DNA from: a virus
Lineage: Duplodnaviria; Caudoviricetes
DNA: 24,804 nucleotides
Virus record (IMG/VR): IMGVR_UViG_3300032260_000024
Coordinates: 1-24,804 of that record
Direction: 5' to 3' (one strand)
Of the stretch, positions 1-8,788 are shown piece by piece. Numbering within the stretch: the stretch's first letter is position 1; every line of letters begins with the position of its first letter. Under the pieces are notes generated by a model. The model had not been told where the DNA came from, did not search any database, and worked only from the letters and a program-made list of their open reading frames with translations. The position numbers were made by a program, and so were the translations under genes.

Positions 1-190
1 GCCAGTAGTGGGCAAGGTGCTTTACTTCCAAGCCGCAATTGGGACACTCAAGGTTGATGAATAAAACTTCCCTGATTTGATTCCGTTCTGATTCCTGCTT
101 ACCGTGATTCACGTATTCCAGTTCGCCTGGACAACCGAGTACAGGGCAGTTCCAAAGGTCGTGACTCAATTGGCATCGCTTGGTGGTCAT
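1..190 (-). CDS. Partial small zinc-ribbon protein (runs off the left edge)
   Basis: Manual translation from the ATG at 190, which overlaps the upstream stop as ATGA: MTTKRCQLSHDLWNCPVLGCPGELEY...LECPNCGLEVKHLAHYW. It has two Cys pairs (CPVLGC, CPNC) and is open to position 1. Not in the ORF track. Confidence 0.65.
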   Translation of the reverse strand, partial: MTTKRCQLSHDLWNCPVLGCPGELEYVNHGKQESERNQIREVLFINLECPNCGLEVKHLAHYW

Positions 191-420
191 ACCGGTTCTC
201 CGGTATCGCAGTCGAAAATCCCAAGACCTTCATCCGTCTCATCTTCCTCAAGCCCTTCCAGTCGTCGTCCGTAATTCACATCATCCACATGCTCGTTGAT
301 TTCCTTCTGTGCTTCCTCGATGGTCTCAAACGTTTGCGGGACCATATCCTCATCGCGGTCGCCCACACTCCAAGCGTTGACCCATCCATCGCACCACGTA
401 TTAGTTCTGACTTCGTACAT
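187..420 (-). CDS. Small acidic phage hypothetical protein
   Basis: 77 aa, AAGGAG RBS upstream of the ATG, co-oriented and tightly packed with its neighbours. Confidence 0.75.
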   Translation of the reverse strand: MYEVRTNTWCDGWVNAWSVGDRDEDMVPQTFETIEEAQKEINEHVDDVNYGRRLEGLEEDETDEGLGIFDCDTGEPV

Positions 421-433
421 GATAATTCTCCTT

Positions 434-619
434 TTAGATGCTCAGTTTCGTTCCCTCTTGATGATCCACGACAACGCGCAGGACAGTCTTTGCCAAACCG
501 ATAGGGGTTTTATCCCCCCAGAAGGTATCGACTCGTCCGTTCTCCTTCACTTTCAGGTGAAGCAATTGGATCAGGTTGTTGCCTAGTATTTCGGCTCTCT
601 CATCGGTCAAGGTTTTCAT
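434..619 (-). CDS. Small phage hypothetical protein
   Basis: 61 aa, ATGA-coupled to the upstream ORF; contains GRVDTFWGDKTPIGL. Confidence 0.7.
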   Translation of the reverse strand: MKTLTDERAEILGNNLIQLLHLKVKENGRVDTFWGDKTPIGLAKTVLRVVVDHQEGTKLSI

Positions 620-840
620 AGGTCGTCCTCATTCACATTCGGTTGAAAATACCAGCTACCAACCGTGTTGCCATTGGTGTCTTTGATGTTGTGGTCGTTC
701 CATCCGTTATCGACTTCGGCGGCAACACGTTTGAGAATCTTTGCCACTTCAAATCGGCATATCTCGCCGTTCTCAGGCATTCCCGGTTCATCCACTTTGA
801 AGGCCGCATTATCCATATCGAATTTCATTATGAATTCCAT
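616..840 (-). CDS. Small phage hypothetical protein (DNAAF...D-NGN-VG type)
   Basis: 74 aa, GAGG RBS. The pattern DNAAF...EVAKILKRVA...IKDTNGNTVG recalls a recurring uncharacterised phage early-protein family (recognised from memory). Confidence 0.75.
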   Translation of the reverse strand: MEFIMKFDMDNAAFKVDEPGMPENGEICRFEVAKILKRVAAEVDNGWNDHNIKDTNGNTVGSWYFQPNVNEDDL

Positions 841-842
841 AA

Positions 843-1049
843 TTATTTAGCCTCCTCGATCATCAGGTGTCCGGGACCATTGCCTTCTTCGTCAGACGAT
901 ATGAACGCATGTATTCGTTTGCCATCTTTCCGGCAAAGCACAAGGCAGGGCATGGACTCGGTGAATTCATCCCCGCCATCTTCTGCGATACTTGTCACGG
1001 TGAATCCTTTCAACCGCTCTAAATCTTTCTTGGTGTTTGGGTGCATCAT
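843..1049 (-). CDS. Small phage hypothetical protein
   Basis: 68 aa, AAGGAG RBS, C-terminal SDEEGNGPGHL motif. Confidence 0.75.
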   Translation of the reverse strand: MMHPNTKKDLERLKGFTVTSIAEDGGDEFTESMPCLVLCRKDGKRIHAFISSDEEGNGPGHLMIEEAK

Positions 1050-1085
1050 AATTTGATCTCCTTGTTCAGGGCTGGATTGCCCGCA

Positions 1086-1115
1086 TGAAAGGGAGACCCG
1101 AAGGTCTCCCCCTCA
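1086..1115 (-). terminator. C(UUCG)G hairpin; possible weak intrinsic terminator or mRNA-stabilising hairpin
   Basis: Minus strand reads GGGAGACC-TTCG-GGTCTCCC, an 8-bp perfect stem extendable with G-U pairs. It lies just after the stop of 1122..1703 and is followed only by TTTCA. Confidence 0.5.
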
Positions 1116-1121
1116 AACTGG

Positions 1122-1703
1122 TTATCCAAAGACAACTTCACCAAACAGGCAACACTGGAGGAACACGTCCCCCGTGATTGCATCATCGCTCTCGTTACGC
1201 CAGTCGCCGAAGTGTTTCGGGTATTTCTCAGCCATGCAGGTGATACCTTTTTCGACTGAATCCCAATTCAGTGTGTGAGTCTGAATGTCGTCGTCGTCCT
1301 CGGTTGCCTCGTCATATTCTTCCTTGTCAACAATCTGGAGCCCTTCTTTGTTCTTTCGCCATGCCTCACAAGCGAGCCCTTGAAATGTGTTTGTGATGAA
1401 ATACCAGTAGTTGGAACCGCCCTCAAGAGCCGAAGCCAAGAGGTTGTCGATTTGTTCCAGTTCAATTTCCAGCATGACAGGGACGAACATTTTAGGAGGT
1501 TTGGGGTTGATCTCAAACCAGATGGGACGGCCAGCAGGTCCGTTGACGAGTTGAGCCTTCGCGAAATACCTGTAGTCGGTTGTTCCGTTATCCTCAACGA
1601 AAGGAATCATGTGATACTGAATCCCTCCGACCTCTTGAATAACTCTATCACCGCCAGAATCTCTAACTTTGCAATCAGGTGAATCGATTAATTTGTATTC
1701 CAT
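1122..1703 (-). CDS. Acidic phage hypothetical protein (EGGxNYW...FGEVVFG family)
   Basis: 193 aa, TAAGGAG RBS. The C-terminal half (ALEGGSNYWY...DAITGDVFLQCCLFGEVVFG) resembles an uncharacterised phage family. Confidence 0.8.
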   Translation of the reverse strand: MEYKLIDSPDCKVRDSGGDRVIQEVGGIQYHMIPFVEDNGTTDYRYFAKAQLVNGPAGRPIWFEINPKPPKMFVPVMLEIELEQIDNLLASALEGGSNYWYFITNTFQGLACEAWRKNKEGLQIVDKEEYDEATEDDDDIQTHTLNWDSVEKGITCMAEKYPKHFGDWRNESDDAITGDVFLQCCLFGEVVFG

Positions 1704-1726
1704 GTCTTGATCTCCTTAGAAAGTTA

Positions 1727-1777
1727 AACTCAGACTCCCCGAAGGGAGTTTCGCCGTTCCCGGCTCGTCAGTGAGTT
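1727..1777 (-). ncRNA. Type I hammerhead ribozyme
   Basis: Minus strand reads AACUCA-CUGACGA-GCCG(GGAA)CGGC-GAA-ACUCCC(UUCG)GGGAGU-C-UGAGUU. This gives stem I (6 bp), the CUGANGA core, stem II with a GNRA loop, GAAA, stem III with a UUCG loop and a GUC cleavage triplet. All conserved core nucleotides are present. Confidence 0.93.
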
Positions 1778-2165
1778 AAATGAATGCTCCCGGCTCAACA
1801 TCGTTTCGTTTCAGGTCGAGCCCTTTCACATTAAAGAACATGGTAAATCGGCGGGTGTACATCCGAAGGAATGAGGAATAAGCCATTGCTCTGATCTTGC
1901 GTGAAAACTTGATGGTGGTCTTGGATGAATGATGAAGGGCAACAACGGGTAGGCACCAGTCGCAGTCCTCCTCGTACCAGCCGGAAGGCACGCGCATGTA
2001 GTCGGGAATGAGGAGGTTTGTCTCAGCGTCCACTTTAATACCACCATGACTGGCGGTATAGACGGCAGTAACGCCATGTTGCGCTTCCAGATTAGATGAA
2101 CGTTGAATCGGTCCCCAAGGTGAATGTCCCAAGTTTGGCTCCGGTACTCTCAAAGAATTAAGCAT
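1776..2165 (-). CDS. DUF7007-like protein; first gene of the early operon
   Basis: Motifs SPWG-IQ, TASHGG and GWYEEDCDW match my recollection of DUF7007. AAGGAG RBS. Confidence 0.7.
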   Translation of the reverse strand: MLNSLRVPEPNLGHSPWGPIQRSSNLEAQHGVTAVYTASHGGIKVDAETNLLIPDYMRVPSGWYEEDCDWCLPVVALHHSSKTTIKFSRKIRAMAYSSFLRMYTRRFTMFFNVKGLDLKRNDVEPGAFI

Positions 2166-2207
2166 AATGTGTTCTCCTTGTCTTAGTTAGATAAACATCT
2201 TACAAAG

Positions 2208-2236
2208 AAGATACAACCAGAAGGAATGATTGTCAA
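2208..2236 (-). promoter_or_regulatory. Sigma70-type promoter of the leftward early operon
   Basis: TTGACA (2236-2231), 17-bp spacer, TATCTT (2213-2208), about 40 bp upstream of the ATG at 2165. Confidence 0.8.
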
Positions 2237-2507
2237 CATGTAAACCGAAGAAAAGGGTAAAAAGATATTGGAATGTGTTGAAATGGTGACAATCGGGAGG
2301 ACTGGGTATTTGTAGAGTAATAATGGGGTGACAGGGCGATGGGCCAGTGTACGGGCTACTGATCGGGCGATATGTTTGGCAAAACATGTCGAGAAAATAG
2401 TGACTTGGAAGGGTCCAAAGATAGAAGGGTTTACAAAAAGGTGTTGCAAAGCAGACAGGGATTGTGTGACTCTTACCAGTAAGTCTTAAACACCACAGCG
2501 TCCAGAA

Positions 2508-2620
2508 CCCCGCAAACCAAAAACCTCCCGCAAAATCCCCAATTCTCCCGCAATCACACAAAAGTCGGCAACAACCGCTGACCTCCCGCAAAGACTCAAC
2601 CGACTTGCCGCAACAACCGC
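2508..2620 (+). repeat. Degenerate short direct repeats (CTCCCGCAA / GCAACAACCGC), ~20-bp period
   Basis: CTCCCGCAA at 2525, 2545 and 2583; CCCCGCAA at 2508; GCAACAACCGC at 2568 and 2610. Confidence 0.55.
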
Positions 2621-2705
2621 ATAATCCCTTCGTTGACTTCACTCTCCCCAAAACAGTACAATTCTCCTCGATATCAACTGCACACAAGCGTTGGAGGCAT
2701 CGATC

Positions 2706-3221
2706 ATGCAGTCAAAAGCAAAACTCGCAAAGAAATTACCGGGACCACGTAGGAAACTCACAGCGAAACAAGTGAAATGGCGTGACCATTATCTCGTACA
2801 CCGTAACGGTACTCAGGCATCATTACACGCTGGTTGCCCTGCGAAAAGTGCTTCCTCCTATGGATCAGTACTGCTGAAAAACCCTCTTATTCAAAAAGCT
2901 CTCGCCGAATACGACTTCGAGAAAACTTATCCGAAGGCAGTAGACAAGGGCTGGATAATCCAGCAGTTGCACAAGAGTTACGACACGTACCAGAAGAAGA
3001 ACGCTTCCTCGGCAGTCAGATGCCTTGAACAGCTCATCAAACTCAGTGATTTCGACCCCGACAAGTCCCCCGGCACATCAAAGGGTAAAAATACCCCGGC
3101 AAGTGATTCGGGGAAATTCAACGATATGACAACGGAGGAAAAGCTTGACGAACTCAGACGAACAACTGAACGCATTGCTGAATCAGTCAAGAGAGCTGGA
3201 CAATCGGGAAGCAAAGAATAG
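2706..3221 (+). CDS. terS: Terminase small subunit
   Basis: LTAKQ..W...YL...NGTQA...AG....A...GS.LLKNP.I is the Terminase_2-type HTH pattern. GGAGG RBS before ATG 2706; lies directly before terL. Confidence 0.88.
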   Translation: MQSKAKLAKKLPGPRRKLTAKQVKWRDHYLVHRNGTQASLHAGCPAKSASSYGSVLLKNPLIQKALAEYDFEKTYPKAVDKGWIIQQLHKSYDTYQKKNASSAVRCLEQLIKLSDFDPDKSPGTSKGKNTPASDSGKFNDMTTEEKLDELRRTTERIAESVKRAGQSGSKE

Positions 3222-4949: not shown

Positions 4950-5347
4950 TGGGCGACCTGACCTTAAACTTCTCAGCATACGAGTTTGCGTGCCATTGCG
5001 GAAATTGCACTCCCACGGTGCAAATGGACAAAGCCCATGTCAACCGGCTCCAGCGCATGCGGGATTTTATGGAGAAGGAGATCAACCCCACGTCCGGGAT
5101 TCGATGCCCTGCTCATAATAAAAAGGTTGGCGGAAAGCCCACCTCCAGCCACCTCAACGGAACCGCCACTGATATTGAGGTCGAAAACAGCTCTGACGAA
5201 CATCGACTGCTTATTGTCGAGGCGGCAATATACGTTGGGTTCACCAGGATAGGAATAGCTGAGCAATTCGTCCATGTAGACAATGACCCATCTAAAAATC
5301 CAGATCGAATGTGGATTTACCCACCCAAAAAGAAGGAGAGCGCATAA
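4949..5347 (+). CDS. Endolysin, peptidase M15A-like zinc peptidase
   Basis: Motifs NF...EFACHCG, SGIRCPAHNKKVGG..SSH..GTATDI and FVHVD. Confidence 0.9.
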   Translation: MGDLTLNFSAYEFACHCGNCTPTVQMDKAHVNRLQRMRDFMEKEINPTSGIRCPAHNKKVGGKPTSSHLNGTATDIEVENSSDEHRLLIVEAAIYVGFTRIGIAEQFVHVDNDPSKNPDRMWIYPPKKKESA

Positions 5348-5553
5348 TGTCTGAGGAAAATGAAACTCCACCTGTAGTCAAACCCGGAAAACAAACAAGC
5401 GAATTTTATGTAACCCTTGCCGGGATGCTTTCTGCCGGCGCTATGTTGGCGTTTGGTATTCCTGTGCCTCCGGAAGCTATTTTGGCCACAATTGGTGTGT
5501 TGGGCTCAGTTTATACCGCCGTTCGCGGCCTGGTGAAATCGAAAGGGAAATAA
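5347..5553 (+). CDS. Putative holin (two hydrophobic segments)
   Basis: TAATG coupling to the endolysin; KPGKQTSEF followed by two hydrophobic stretches and a basic C-terminal tail. Confidence 0.65.
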   Translation: MSEENETPPVVKPGKQTSEFYVTLAGMLSAGAMLAFGIPVPPEAILATIGVLGSVYTAVRGLVKSKGK

Positions 5554-5559
5554 TCCATT

Positions 5560-6385: not shown

Positions 6386-8788
6386 ATGCCTCAAGACCGG
6401 CCGGGGATCGGCGAAGAAAACTCCGGGGAAAAGGTAGCCAAGCCGGTCAGTAATGACGATAATCTTGATATTTCCGTAGCCGAGCGCACCCACGTCAAGG
6501 AGTTGAAGGCGTGGGTTAAAAGATGCGAACGGCAGGAATGGCCTGATAACAAGACGATTGCGAAGATTTGCGAAGAAAACCGCACATACGTCGAAGGCAA
6601 ACAACACACTGATGGGGAGTCCGGACTTGTCCGGGCGAACCTCATTCAGGCCAGTATCCGCAGGACCACCAACCGAACATACGCCAGAAATCCCGAGATA
6701 TCGATCGTTCCCACGGAAGCGGTCAACGCCACGCAGTACAAACTTTTCCGAGCCTTCGGAAAAACCAGCGAAATTGTAGTAAATCACTTCCTCAGCAAAG
6801 CAAAAATAAAGAAAAAAGCGAAATCTAACCTCCGCGCCGCCAAGACGTGTCGAGTCGGCTGGCTGAAAGTCGGCCTGCAAAAGAACCTCAGGACCGATGC
6901 CCACATCAAGAGCCGTATCCAGGACCTCCAGGATAATATCCAAACCAATGAGGGATTGAAACTGGAGGTTACTGATCCAGACTTCAATCAGGAAGATAAC
7001 GACCTCAGGGAATCAAAAATACTCGAGAGACAGCAGTTAATTGAGTCCCTGAAACTCAAGGTCGAAGTGCTCCGCGCCGAAGGAATCACCCTTGATAGGG
7101 TAAAAACCGAGCACATGATCATCGACGTATCCGAAATAGAGTCCCTGGACGATTACGCTCAGTCTGAAAGGATCGGACAAAGATTTTTTATGTCTCCCAA
7201 AGTTGCAACCGAGCGATACGGGGATAAGGCCAAACATCTGAGCGTTTTCAAGCTCTCTGAGCGCGAATTATCGACCAGTGAAGGCACTTCGTACACCGAA
7301 GAAAGCGAAAAGCAGTCGAAGCAGACCAAGCAGTACGAGATTTGGGACCGCAAAAACCTAAAATATTACACGATTGGCGAGGGATACCCTGGCTACTTGA
7401 CGGAACCGGTATCCCCTCAGGACGAGGTTGGGGAACAGTGGTATCCGTATTTCCCCTTGGGCCTGAACAAGGTGGACGGGAAATTCTGGCCTCTCTCCGA
7501 TGTGGAGCTCATAAAAGAGTTACAGGACGAAATCTCCACCTCCCTCACCCAATTCAAAGAGCACCGCCAAAAGTCCGTTCCCTTCACGATTTTCAATAAA
7601 ACGTCGATCGATGAGGAGACGATGAAGAAAATCACCGACCCGAAGTTTATGGAATTCATCGGGATTGACGGGATTGCTGATAAGCCTTTGGATCAGATGT
7701 TCCATGAGGTCAAGCCAAATACAATCGACCCCCAGGTTTATGGGACTGCCCACCTTGAACAGAAGATGGAGCAGGTCATTGGATCCAATGAGGCGACTCA
7801 ACCGAAGAACAACCGGTCGAAAACCCTTGGTGAAGCGAAAATCCTCACCCAGGATGTAGCCACCGATTCGACCAGCGACCAGGACGACCTTGAAGAATGG
7901 TACGGAGATATCGCCCTTTACGTTTGGCAAATCCTCCTGAAAGTCCTCACCCCTGAACAGGTTGAACAGATTGCCGGTGAAGGTTCAGACTGGCCGAAAG
8001 CGCGTCAATCGCTCCCCACGATTTACAACCAGCTTCGGTTGCAGGTGAAACCAGGCTCCTCCGGAAAGCCCGACAAGCAGAGGGAGACTGAGACCTTGAC
8101 CACCCTCATGCCACCTATCACCGAAATGATCATGCAGATCGCTGATTTCAAGGAAAAGGGGCAGGATGAGCTGGCTGAGACTCAGACGAAAATCCTCCAG
8201 GAATTTTTGCGTAGGGCTGATGAGAAATTCGACGTTGCTGAGTTTTTCCCCGAGGATGACAATGCCGCGGAATTGAAGGCTCAAAAAGAGCAGGAACGGC
8301 AGGCTCAACAGCAGGCGCAATTGCAGGCAATCGAGTTAGATAATGCCGTGAAGCAGTCGGAAATCCAGAAAAACAACGCGGAAGCTGAGAAGAACATCGC
8401 CCTGGCAGAAGCCGCGCTGAACCCTCAACCACAGCAAGCCGACAATTCCGAGTTAGAAATTTTCAAGATTCAGGAAAAATCGGCCAGCGATATGAGAAAA
8501 GCTGAGCTCGACGCCGCTACCAAGGTGAAGATAGCTCAGGATAAGCTGACGGCAGACCTCGAAAAACAGCGTTTAACGAACCAGGCCCTTATTGAAGTCG
8601 CCAATATCGAAAGAGATACTGAGCTCCAAAAAGCTACTATCCAGGAAAAAATTTCCGACAAAAAACTGCTGGCCGAGAGCAACAATAAGGACAAGGATAT
8701 CGAAGGACAGAAGGAAACTGCCGAAATATCAGCGAAAGCCAAAGATGATGAAAAAAAGAAAGAGGCAAAGACTTCAAACGCTGAGTAG
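6386..8788 (+). CDS. Portal protein (podovirus type, long C-terminal helical barrel)
   Basis: 800 aa, downstream of terL. N-terminal NLI...I......YARNP.I, central YPYFPL...PLSDVELIKELQDEI, and a Q/E/A/K-rich coiled-coil C-terminus. Confidence 0.85.
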   Translation: MPQDRPGIGEENSGEKVAKPVSNDDNLDISVAERTHVKELKAWVKRCERQEWPDNKTIAKICEENRTYVEGKQHTDGESGLVRANLIQASIRRTTNRTYARNPEISIVPTEAVNATQYKLFRAFGKTSEIVVNHFLSKAKIKKKAKSNLRAAKTCRVGWLKVGLQKNLRTDAHIKSRIQDLQDNIQTNEGLKLEVTDPDFNQEDNDLRESKILERQQLIESLKLKVEVLRAEGITLDRVKTEHMIIDVSEIESLDDYAQSERIGQRFFMSPKVATERYGDKAKHLSVFKLSERELSTSEGTSYTEESEKQSKQTKQYEIWDRKNLKYYTIGEGYPGYLTEPVSPQDEVGEQWYPYFPLGLNKVDGKFWPLSDVELIKELQDEISTSLTQFKEHRQKSVPFTIFNKTSIDEETMKKITDPKFMEFIGIDGIADKPLDQMFHEVKPNTIDPQVYGTAHLEQKMEQVIGSNEATQPKNNRSKTLGEAKILTQDVATDSTSDQDDLEEWYGDIALYVWQILLKVLTPEQVEQIAGEGSDWPKARQSLPTIYNQLRLQVKPGSSGKPDKQRETETLTTLMPPITEMIMQIADFKEKGQDELAETQTKILQEFLRRADEKFDVAEFFPEDDNAAELKAQKEQERQAQQQAQLQAIELDNAVKQSEIQKNNAEAEKNIALAEAALNPQPQQADNSELEIFKIQEKSASDMRKAELDAATKVKIAQDKLTADLEKQRLTNQALIEVANIERDTELQKATIQEKISDKKLLAESNNKDKDIEGQKETAEISAKAKDDEKKKEAKTSNAE

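Follow-up and report, generated by a model that had tools for sequence, protein, structure and literature searches.

The window, by which we mean the whole 24,804-base stretch of DNA analyzed here, is a partial tailed-phage genome whose plus strand encodes, from about position 2700 onward, terminase subunits, an endolysin, a tail spike and a major head protein. The closest terminases among the matches listed are 34-40% identical, with cyanobacterial and Brucella phages among the sources, and no phage RNA polymerase was found among the 27 window proteins scanned on this partial contig. An 800-aa ORF (6386-8788, plus strand) with no Pfam or PHROGs match occupies the usual portal position, and a small hydrophobic ORF after the endolysin (5348-5554, plus strand; own ATG near 5348, also callable from a GTG at 5311) is likely holin-like.

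The minus strand carries seven small ORFs that run from 2165 to the contig end, with gaps of at most 13 nt at four of the six junctions. Tightly spaced, small and divergent from the terminase genes, they likely form an early operon. A sigma-70-like element (TTGACA-17-TATCTT; 2208..2236, minus strand) lies about 45 nt upstream of the first of these genes and agrees with 10 of 12 consensus positions, making it a candidate operon promoter with its position as the sole argument; three sigma-70-like sites occur in 1-3200 against 3.6 expected by chance, so the label ‘early operon’ is one that we infer from the layout. Three 20-nt copies (repeat D2, 2514-2591) ending in CTCCCGCAA also lie in the non-coding stretch where the two gene blocks diverge, and are possible protein-binding or packaging sites.

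The first minus-strand gene (1776..2165) encodes a 129-aa DUF7007 protein (Pfam PF22653, E=1.6e-21) whose Atlas clusters are mostly viral; a literature search for the term DUF7007 returned no paper. The second (1122..1703, minus strand) encodes 193 aa, of which residues about 65-193 match phrog_2355 (PHROGs, E=1e-11), and has 490 homologs, those listed covering 57-70% of the query. Across Pfam, PHROGs and the Atlas, the two proteins are annotated as no more than DUF7007 and viral clusters without a name. None of the listed homologs, mostly 120-155 aa long, matches residues 1-65 of the 193-aa protein (1703-1511, minus strand), a part that may possibly be a fusion or an extension; an internal ATG near 1490 on the minus strand of the same gene has an anti-SD-like CCTCCT ahead of it. 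Its start is preceded by a Shine-Dalgarno-like AAGGAGA (1711..1717, minus strand) 7 nt before the ATG at 1703, a leader motif found ahead of three genes of the operon (repeat D1). Directly after the gene stands a UUCG hairpin with a G-U extension (1086..1115, minus strand), followed by only three U. At -24.9 kcal/mol for 41 nt it is more stable than any of 1000 shuffles (mean -11.2, minimum -22.4), and the terminator scan did not list it; it is predicted to be a 3' barrier or a leaky terminator. The rest of the operon (2..1049, minus strand) consists of five ORFs of 68, 74, 61, 77 and at least 63 aa.

The ribozyme that is the subject of this analysis occupies the first operon junction, the 72-nt gap between the DUF7007 and phrog_2355 genes, and the junction holding the hairpin is likewise exactly 72 nt. 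The UAA stop of the DUF7007 gene (1778-1776) overlaps the 5' strand of ribozyme stem I, and the phrog_2355 gene starts 29 nt past the predicted cut. Only one of the six operon junctions carries a hammerhead; the type I descriptor found none at the junctions among the ORFs in 2..1049.

The hammerhead motif and its folding

By direct reading, minus-strand positions 1777-1727 form a complete type I hammerhead motif of 51 nt that is single-copy and consensus-perfect. Stem I (1777-1772/1732-1727, 6 bp) is open. It is followed by the core C3-U4-G5-A6-C7-G8-A9 (1771-1765; consensus CUGANGA), stem II (1764-1761/1756-1753, 4 bp) with loop GGAA (1760-1757), G12-A13-A14 (1752-1750), and stem III (1749-1744/1739-1734, 6 bp including A15.1-U16.1 at 1749/1734) with loop UUCG (1743-1740), all on the minus strand. 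C17 is at 1733, which places the predicted cut at 1733/1732. All core features of the hammerhead class (CUGANGA, GAA, A15.1-U16.1 and H17) are thus present at 1777-1727, with three helices round the core, stem II closed by G10.1-C11.1, and the type I arrangement in which loops close stems II and III. The sequence-only reading had claimed a complete type I hammerhead with these core bases, three stems, two tetraloops and this cut site; the letters read as it stated, and its predicted cut agrees with the position of C17. The claim is further borne out by the centroid fold of 1790-1715, which is exactly the hammerhead three-way junction, and by dinucleotide shuffles, of which 0 of 2000 matched with stems of at least 5/4/4 bp and 6 of 2000 gave any match to a loose descriptor (stems 4/3/3 bp). 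Its folding energy is unremarkable (z = -1.35, with 22 of 200 shuffles folding equally well).

A descriptor search of all 24,804 bases returned 1777-1727 as the sole type I hammerhead, and no second one emerged from five core-like matches that were checked in this partial contig. The locus therefore differs from clustered phage hammerheads, in which at least two ribozymes bound a gene or block, since one type I match is present in the partial contig. With a single copy in the window, a ribozyme-bounded circle is ruled out here, again as far as the partial contig extends.

When pairing probabilities were computed with ViennaRNA, the isolated element (1777-1727) gave 0.87, 1.00 and 0.95 for stems I, II and III, making stem I the weakest of the three helices. 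In longer RNAs the outcome for stem I depends on the segment folded. The 3' strand of stem I has a potential competing partner at the end of the upstream coding sequence (1788..1800, minus strand), and the stem I probability is 0.04 for 1800-1700, 0.01 for 2201-1700 and 0.50 for 1830-1690, and 0.74-0.83 for three longer segments at 37 C. With the 3' end held at 1715, it is at least 0.88 for 5' ends at 1778-1790, at most 0.06 for 1802-1818 and 0.80-0.87 for 1822-1850. Forcing the upstream coding sequence to be unpaired gave 0.44, and in co-transcriptional snapshots that start at 1830 the active fold is in place by 1728. Because the probability of stem I varies with the segment chosen, the fold model does not establish a switch; the 1800-1700 RNA that had been proposed for in vitro transcription is itself predicted to misfold. 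Nine nucleotides of the ribozyme, from G8-A9 through stem II into its loop (1766-1758), recur at 1796-1788 (minus strand), at the end of the DUF7007 coding sequence and inside the region of the predicted competing helix. The 5' cleavage product is predicted to keep stems II and III as 3' hairpins. We also considered whether cleavage gates ribosome access and rejected this on the fold model, with the probability that the ribosome-binding site is unpaired at 0.43-0.48 in the uncut and 0.37-0.43 in the cut RNA.

A compact phage subfamily and its position 1.7

Rfam returned no match on the whole window at E<=1. On 1690-1820 (131 bases), the RAGATH-1-hammerhead model (RF03152) scored 24.5 bits (gathering score 56.3) and Hammerhead_3 (RF00008) 20.9 bits (gathering score 48.5). 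The check suggested earlier, a search with the Rfam hammerhead models, thus yields sub-threshold alignments on the short segment, nothing on the window and no score at gathering level. Both models align with the phage element in the core and stem III; the 5' hairpin of RF03152, which pairs with loop II, is absent from the phage element, and RF00008 describes a type III ribozyme with an open stem III, whereas stem III of the type I phage element is closed. None of 17 related loci matched Rfam at gathering level either, indicating that the window is blank because the models do not cover the subfamily.

These related sequences are numerous. A pattern composed of the core and stem II matched at least 122 viral stretches, out of a total estimated at about 270, and narrower patterns added 22 viral stretches (partly from the same contigs) and nine metagenome stretches, one of which (L241) is the window itself and was excluded from the stem I covariation and position 1.7 counts. 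The GNAA loop was fixed in the narrower viral, GTDB and metagenome patterns, which enriches one subfamily. Among GTDB genomes, one contig matches the subfamily pattern, and in annotated phages there was no full match to 1790-1700, the best reaching 33% coverage. A full hammerhead closes in 103 of the 109 distinct viral matches with 70 nt on each side (86 type I and 17 type III); shuffling the flanks lowers this to 2.4 of 109 on average. Stem II is fixed by the search pattern, so covariation was assessed for stem I, with the alignment anchored on the core, stem II and stem III only. Pairs 1-5 of stem I are paired in 599 of 610 cells from 122 distinct sequences, using all four Watson-Crick types, compared to 320 after permutation; the helix covariation characteristic of the hammerhead class is therefore found in stem I.

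The placement of the ribozyme relative to genes is also shared. In 76 of 112 type I members, an SD-like motif and start codon occur within 60 nt past the cut (median 32 nt), against 14 when shuffled. An upstream ORF of at least 45 aa ends between -13 and +1 of C3 in 54 of the 75 members with 600 nt of upstream sequence (5 when shuffled), and of 98 members that have an upstream ORF, 81 place its stop in this interval, the stops peaking at -8, -7, -3 and +1. No paper on the overlap of hammerheads with stop codons was among those listed from the open-licence literature. The downstream genes are mutually unrelated: the 70 ORFs, of median length 69 aa, form 56 clusters, and a Pfam match was obtained for 2 of 69. 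A strong 3' hairpin was considered as a family trait and rejected, with 12 of 67 downstream genes reaching -15 kcal/mol.

The ribozyme does not track the genes that flank it in the window. An orthologue search with the upstream protein gave seven DUF7007 loci, none of which (0/7) has a type I hammerhead. The downstream protein found no viral locus in a single-sequence search; from its alignment (A1: 223 loci, 80 kept), whose first row spans residues 1-128 and only partly covers the conserved domain, a type I hammerhead turned up at 5 of the 80 phrog_2355 loci, each time 0.9-2 kb away from the match and never adjoining the gene. L240 carries a ribozyme almost identical to that of the window, stem I being the same, in an unrelated gene context, and near-identical cassettes are found ahead of unrelated genes. 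Taken together, and as read from the sequences, the ribozyme with its ribosome-binding site and leader behaves as a portable 5' module placed ahead of phage genes that are small and variable.

Several members depart from the single-copy layout. Arrays of at least three hammerheads occur in some contigs (L044-L047, L013, L115, L051 and L082), the L044-L047 copies sharing a common 30-nt leader after stem I, and types II and III are mixed in L018, L019, L051 and L087. Three copies (L137, L151 and L237) have an intact core and stems II-III with a U run replacing the 3' strand of stem I, and these are probably inactive or misassembled, judging from that replacement.

The base just past stem I shows a further regularity. 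In the window, the nucleotide at position 1.7 is an unpaired U (1726, minus strand) that faces U1778 and is predicted to form a trans-Hoogsteen pair with A1757, the final loop II base. Position 1.7 is absent from every search pattern, and it is U in 54 of 57 tetraloop and 18 of 21 hexaloop members, versus 1 of 37 pentaloop members, 34 of which have A. Collapsing by stem I hexamer, which partly removes relatedness, leaves U1.7 in 25 of 28 tetraloop versus 1 of 21 pentaloop members (Fisher p = 1.2e-9). U1.7 is kept in 32 of 33 members with an unpairable C or U at 2.7, and position 1.8 varies. We consider a single tertiary pair between domains I and II, U1726:A1757, likely in the window from these counts. 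The earlier description of the motif was accurate for all secondary elements and overlooked this likely contact. Pentaloop type I members have a 6-bp stem I in 39 of 40 cases (e.g. L038, L116, L118 and L169); the pentaloop with A1.7 may be a second docking design.

The same contact has been described in engineered and crystallized hammerheads (PMC11875169, PMC9217987). As presented in these two papers, O'Rourke and Scott found that an unpaired U seven bases past the cut pairs with the A at the end of a GNRA loop II, a U1.7:A contact giving rates like those of full-length hammerheads. An unpaired U facing U led to about twofold turnover at 0.5 mM Mg2+ in PMC11875169, where a section heading calls the residue not essential, and one engineered hammerhead in PMC9217987 did not benefit from the U1.7 design. 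The reverse Hoogsteen pair is a known conserved hammerhead contact (PMC6155905) and Figure S5 of Perreault et al. 2011 scores a related motif (PMC3088659), so the pair predicted in the phage element would be an already known contact, here in a compact and natural setting. Minimal A(L2.4):U1.7 hammerheads and the phage element share a 4-bp stem II, a GNRA loop ending in A, an unpaired U seven nt 3' of the cut and a U opposite at 2.7. They differ in that the former are engineered trans-acting RNAs, whereas the phage layout is natural, acts in cis and is conserved across a subfamily, with the contact predicted from sequence. No paper on U1.7 in natural phage hammerheads was among those listed from the open-licence literature, and the rule linking loop II to position 1.7, like the stop-codon overlap, may be unreported so far. 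If confirmed, the rule would lend natural support to a minimal hammerhead with a single contact and would improve the search model, since Rfam missed 17 of 17 related loci.

Proposed processing of the operon message and rival readings

Phage hammerheads of this kind are already known and are common in viral sequence collections. Perreault et al. 2011 described hammerheads that flank phage or prophage genes, for example in the Agrobacterium ardA cluster, PaP3, Bcep176 and the HHphage of HF1/HF2, and proposed that they cut phage transcripts into operon- or single-gene mRNAs (PMC3088659). The same study reports that native polycistronic constructs of about 2 kb were cleaved in vitro and in E. coli, and that an in vivo 5' end in halovirus HF2 maps at the hammerhead, 13 nt before an early gene (PMC3088659). 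The role of bacterial and phage hammerheads is still described as open in reviews (PMC6765202, PMC6155905). The window element resembles those of Perreault et al. in its consensus core, its intergenic position between small same-strand genes, the close next start codon and the proposed processing of a long transcript; it differs in being single-copy rather than clustered and type I, with a 6-bp stem I and no predicted pseudoknot. It is an ordinary, well-formed example, and by itself leaves the known picture unchanged.

The reading we favor, and regard as rather probable, is that constitutive cis-cleavage splits the operon message and places the downstream gene on a separate transcript. The hammerhead would cut its own RNA after C1733 soon after transcription and with no trigger, the cleavage presumably being fast at cellular Mg2+ with help from the U1726-A1757 pair. 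This would separate the DUF7007 cistron from the remaining, likely early, operon message. Hammerhead cleavage after C17 leaves a 2',3'-cyclic phosphate and a 5'-OH (PMC6765202), and the 3' product would accordingly begin with a 5'-OH end and a 29-nt leader, which retains the AAGGAGA, ahead of the phrog_2355 gene. Bounded by the hairpin at 1115-1086, it may decay and be translated independently of the upstream gene, with the ribozyme and ribosome-binding site acting as a portable 5' module. RNase E entry from the 5' end requires a monophosphate, which the 3' product would lack. RNase J1, on the other hand, accepts 5'-OH ends, and it breaks down the 5'-OH fragment left by the glmS ribozyme (PMC3997798), and the sign of the effect thus depends on the host; uncoupling with stabilization is favored since a strong leader is kept across the family. 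Several results weigh against the favored reading: the chance frequency of promoter-like sites, the competing fold of the weak stem I, a ribosome-binding site that is not opened by cutting in the model, a ribozyme not linked to these two genes, a 3' hairpin that the family does not share, and the small or absent gain from U1.7 in engineered hammerheads.

The sequence-only reading had already proposed a self-processing operon message. The family pattern, with a stop at the 5' edge and a ribosome-binding site and start about 30 nt past the cut, supports that proposal, which is not new. It had also drawn an analogy with T7. In T7 early mRNA, the protein nuclease RNase III cuts long hairpins at several junctions and leaves 5'-phosphate ends. 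The two systems are alike in that a polycistronic phage message is cut between genes. The likeness is otherwise loose, with one predicted self-cut at one of the six operon junctions, with 5'-OH and cyclic-phosphate ends, and with no phage RNA polymerase among the 27 proteins scanned from this partial contig.

Cleavage might instead be gated by translation, with terminating ribosomes clearing the competing helix and blocking the core while at the stop, so that the cut reports upstream translation. We judge this unlikely. The UAA stop (1778-1776) does overlap stem I, the stops of the family do cluster at -13 to +1 of C3 (81 of 98; 54 of 75 versus 5 shuffled), and a helix competing through 1800-1788 is predicted; however, the shuffle shows only that real genes end there, as plain genome compaction would also predict, and a UGA at +1 is built into the core. 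Moreover, the competing helix vanishes when the 5' end is extended to 1822-1850, the probability of stem I is 0.44 rather than higher when the upstream coding sequence is forced unpaired, and the snapshots from 1830 show the active fold by 1728. A broader proposal joins such gating to the subfamily as a whole. In it, a widespread compact type I subfamily invisible to Rfam would reach full speed through a single A:U contact, with at least two docking designs (a tetraloop with U1.7 and a pentaloop with A1.7), and placement over the upstream stop codon would make the cut termination-gated. This composite is also improbable, and the single A:U contact has so far been shown only in engineered RNAs, as PMC11875169 and PMC9217987 present it.

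It is less probable still that the cut serves as a decay signal, the cut end lowering or time-limiting downstream expression, as in glmS, or exposing the upstream piece to 3' decay. The degradation of the glmS 5'-OH product by RNase J1 (PMC3997798) provides a precedent, and short-lived early messages would presumably suit a phage. Yet a strong SD stays on the 3' product across the family and the 5' product is predicted to end in the stem II and III hairpins. That the ribozyme and ribosome-binding site are a passenger repeat, which spreads and favors gene swapping or RNA circles, with cleavage having little effect on the two genes, seems very unlikely to us. It would fit the near-identical cassettes ahead of unrelated genes and the repeated copies with a common downstream leader in one contig (L044-L047), but the retention of the core, the covarying stems and the loop-specific U1.7 across 119 distinct type I sequences suggests selection on catalysis. 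With one copy, the window allows no ribozyme-bounded circle within the partial contig, and Perreault et al. report detecting no spliced or circular products (PMC3088659). As for a resemblance arising by chance or an inactive motif incapable of cleavage, the energy z-score of -1.35 and the absence of any Rfam family at gathering score are what such a motif would give, but it is extremely improbable given 0 of 2000 shuffles at 5/4/4 bp and a family with covariation, and the Rfam blank reflects the models, which also miss 17 of 17 related loci.

Constitutive splitting of the message is a reading for which this locus offers a clean test piece, of whether cutting stabilizes, destabilizes or uncouples a cistron, because the ribozyme is single-copy, 51 nt long and consensus-perfect, bordered by a stop codon on its 5' side and a ribosome-binding site on its 3' side, with a hairpin following the phrog_2355 gene.
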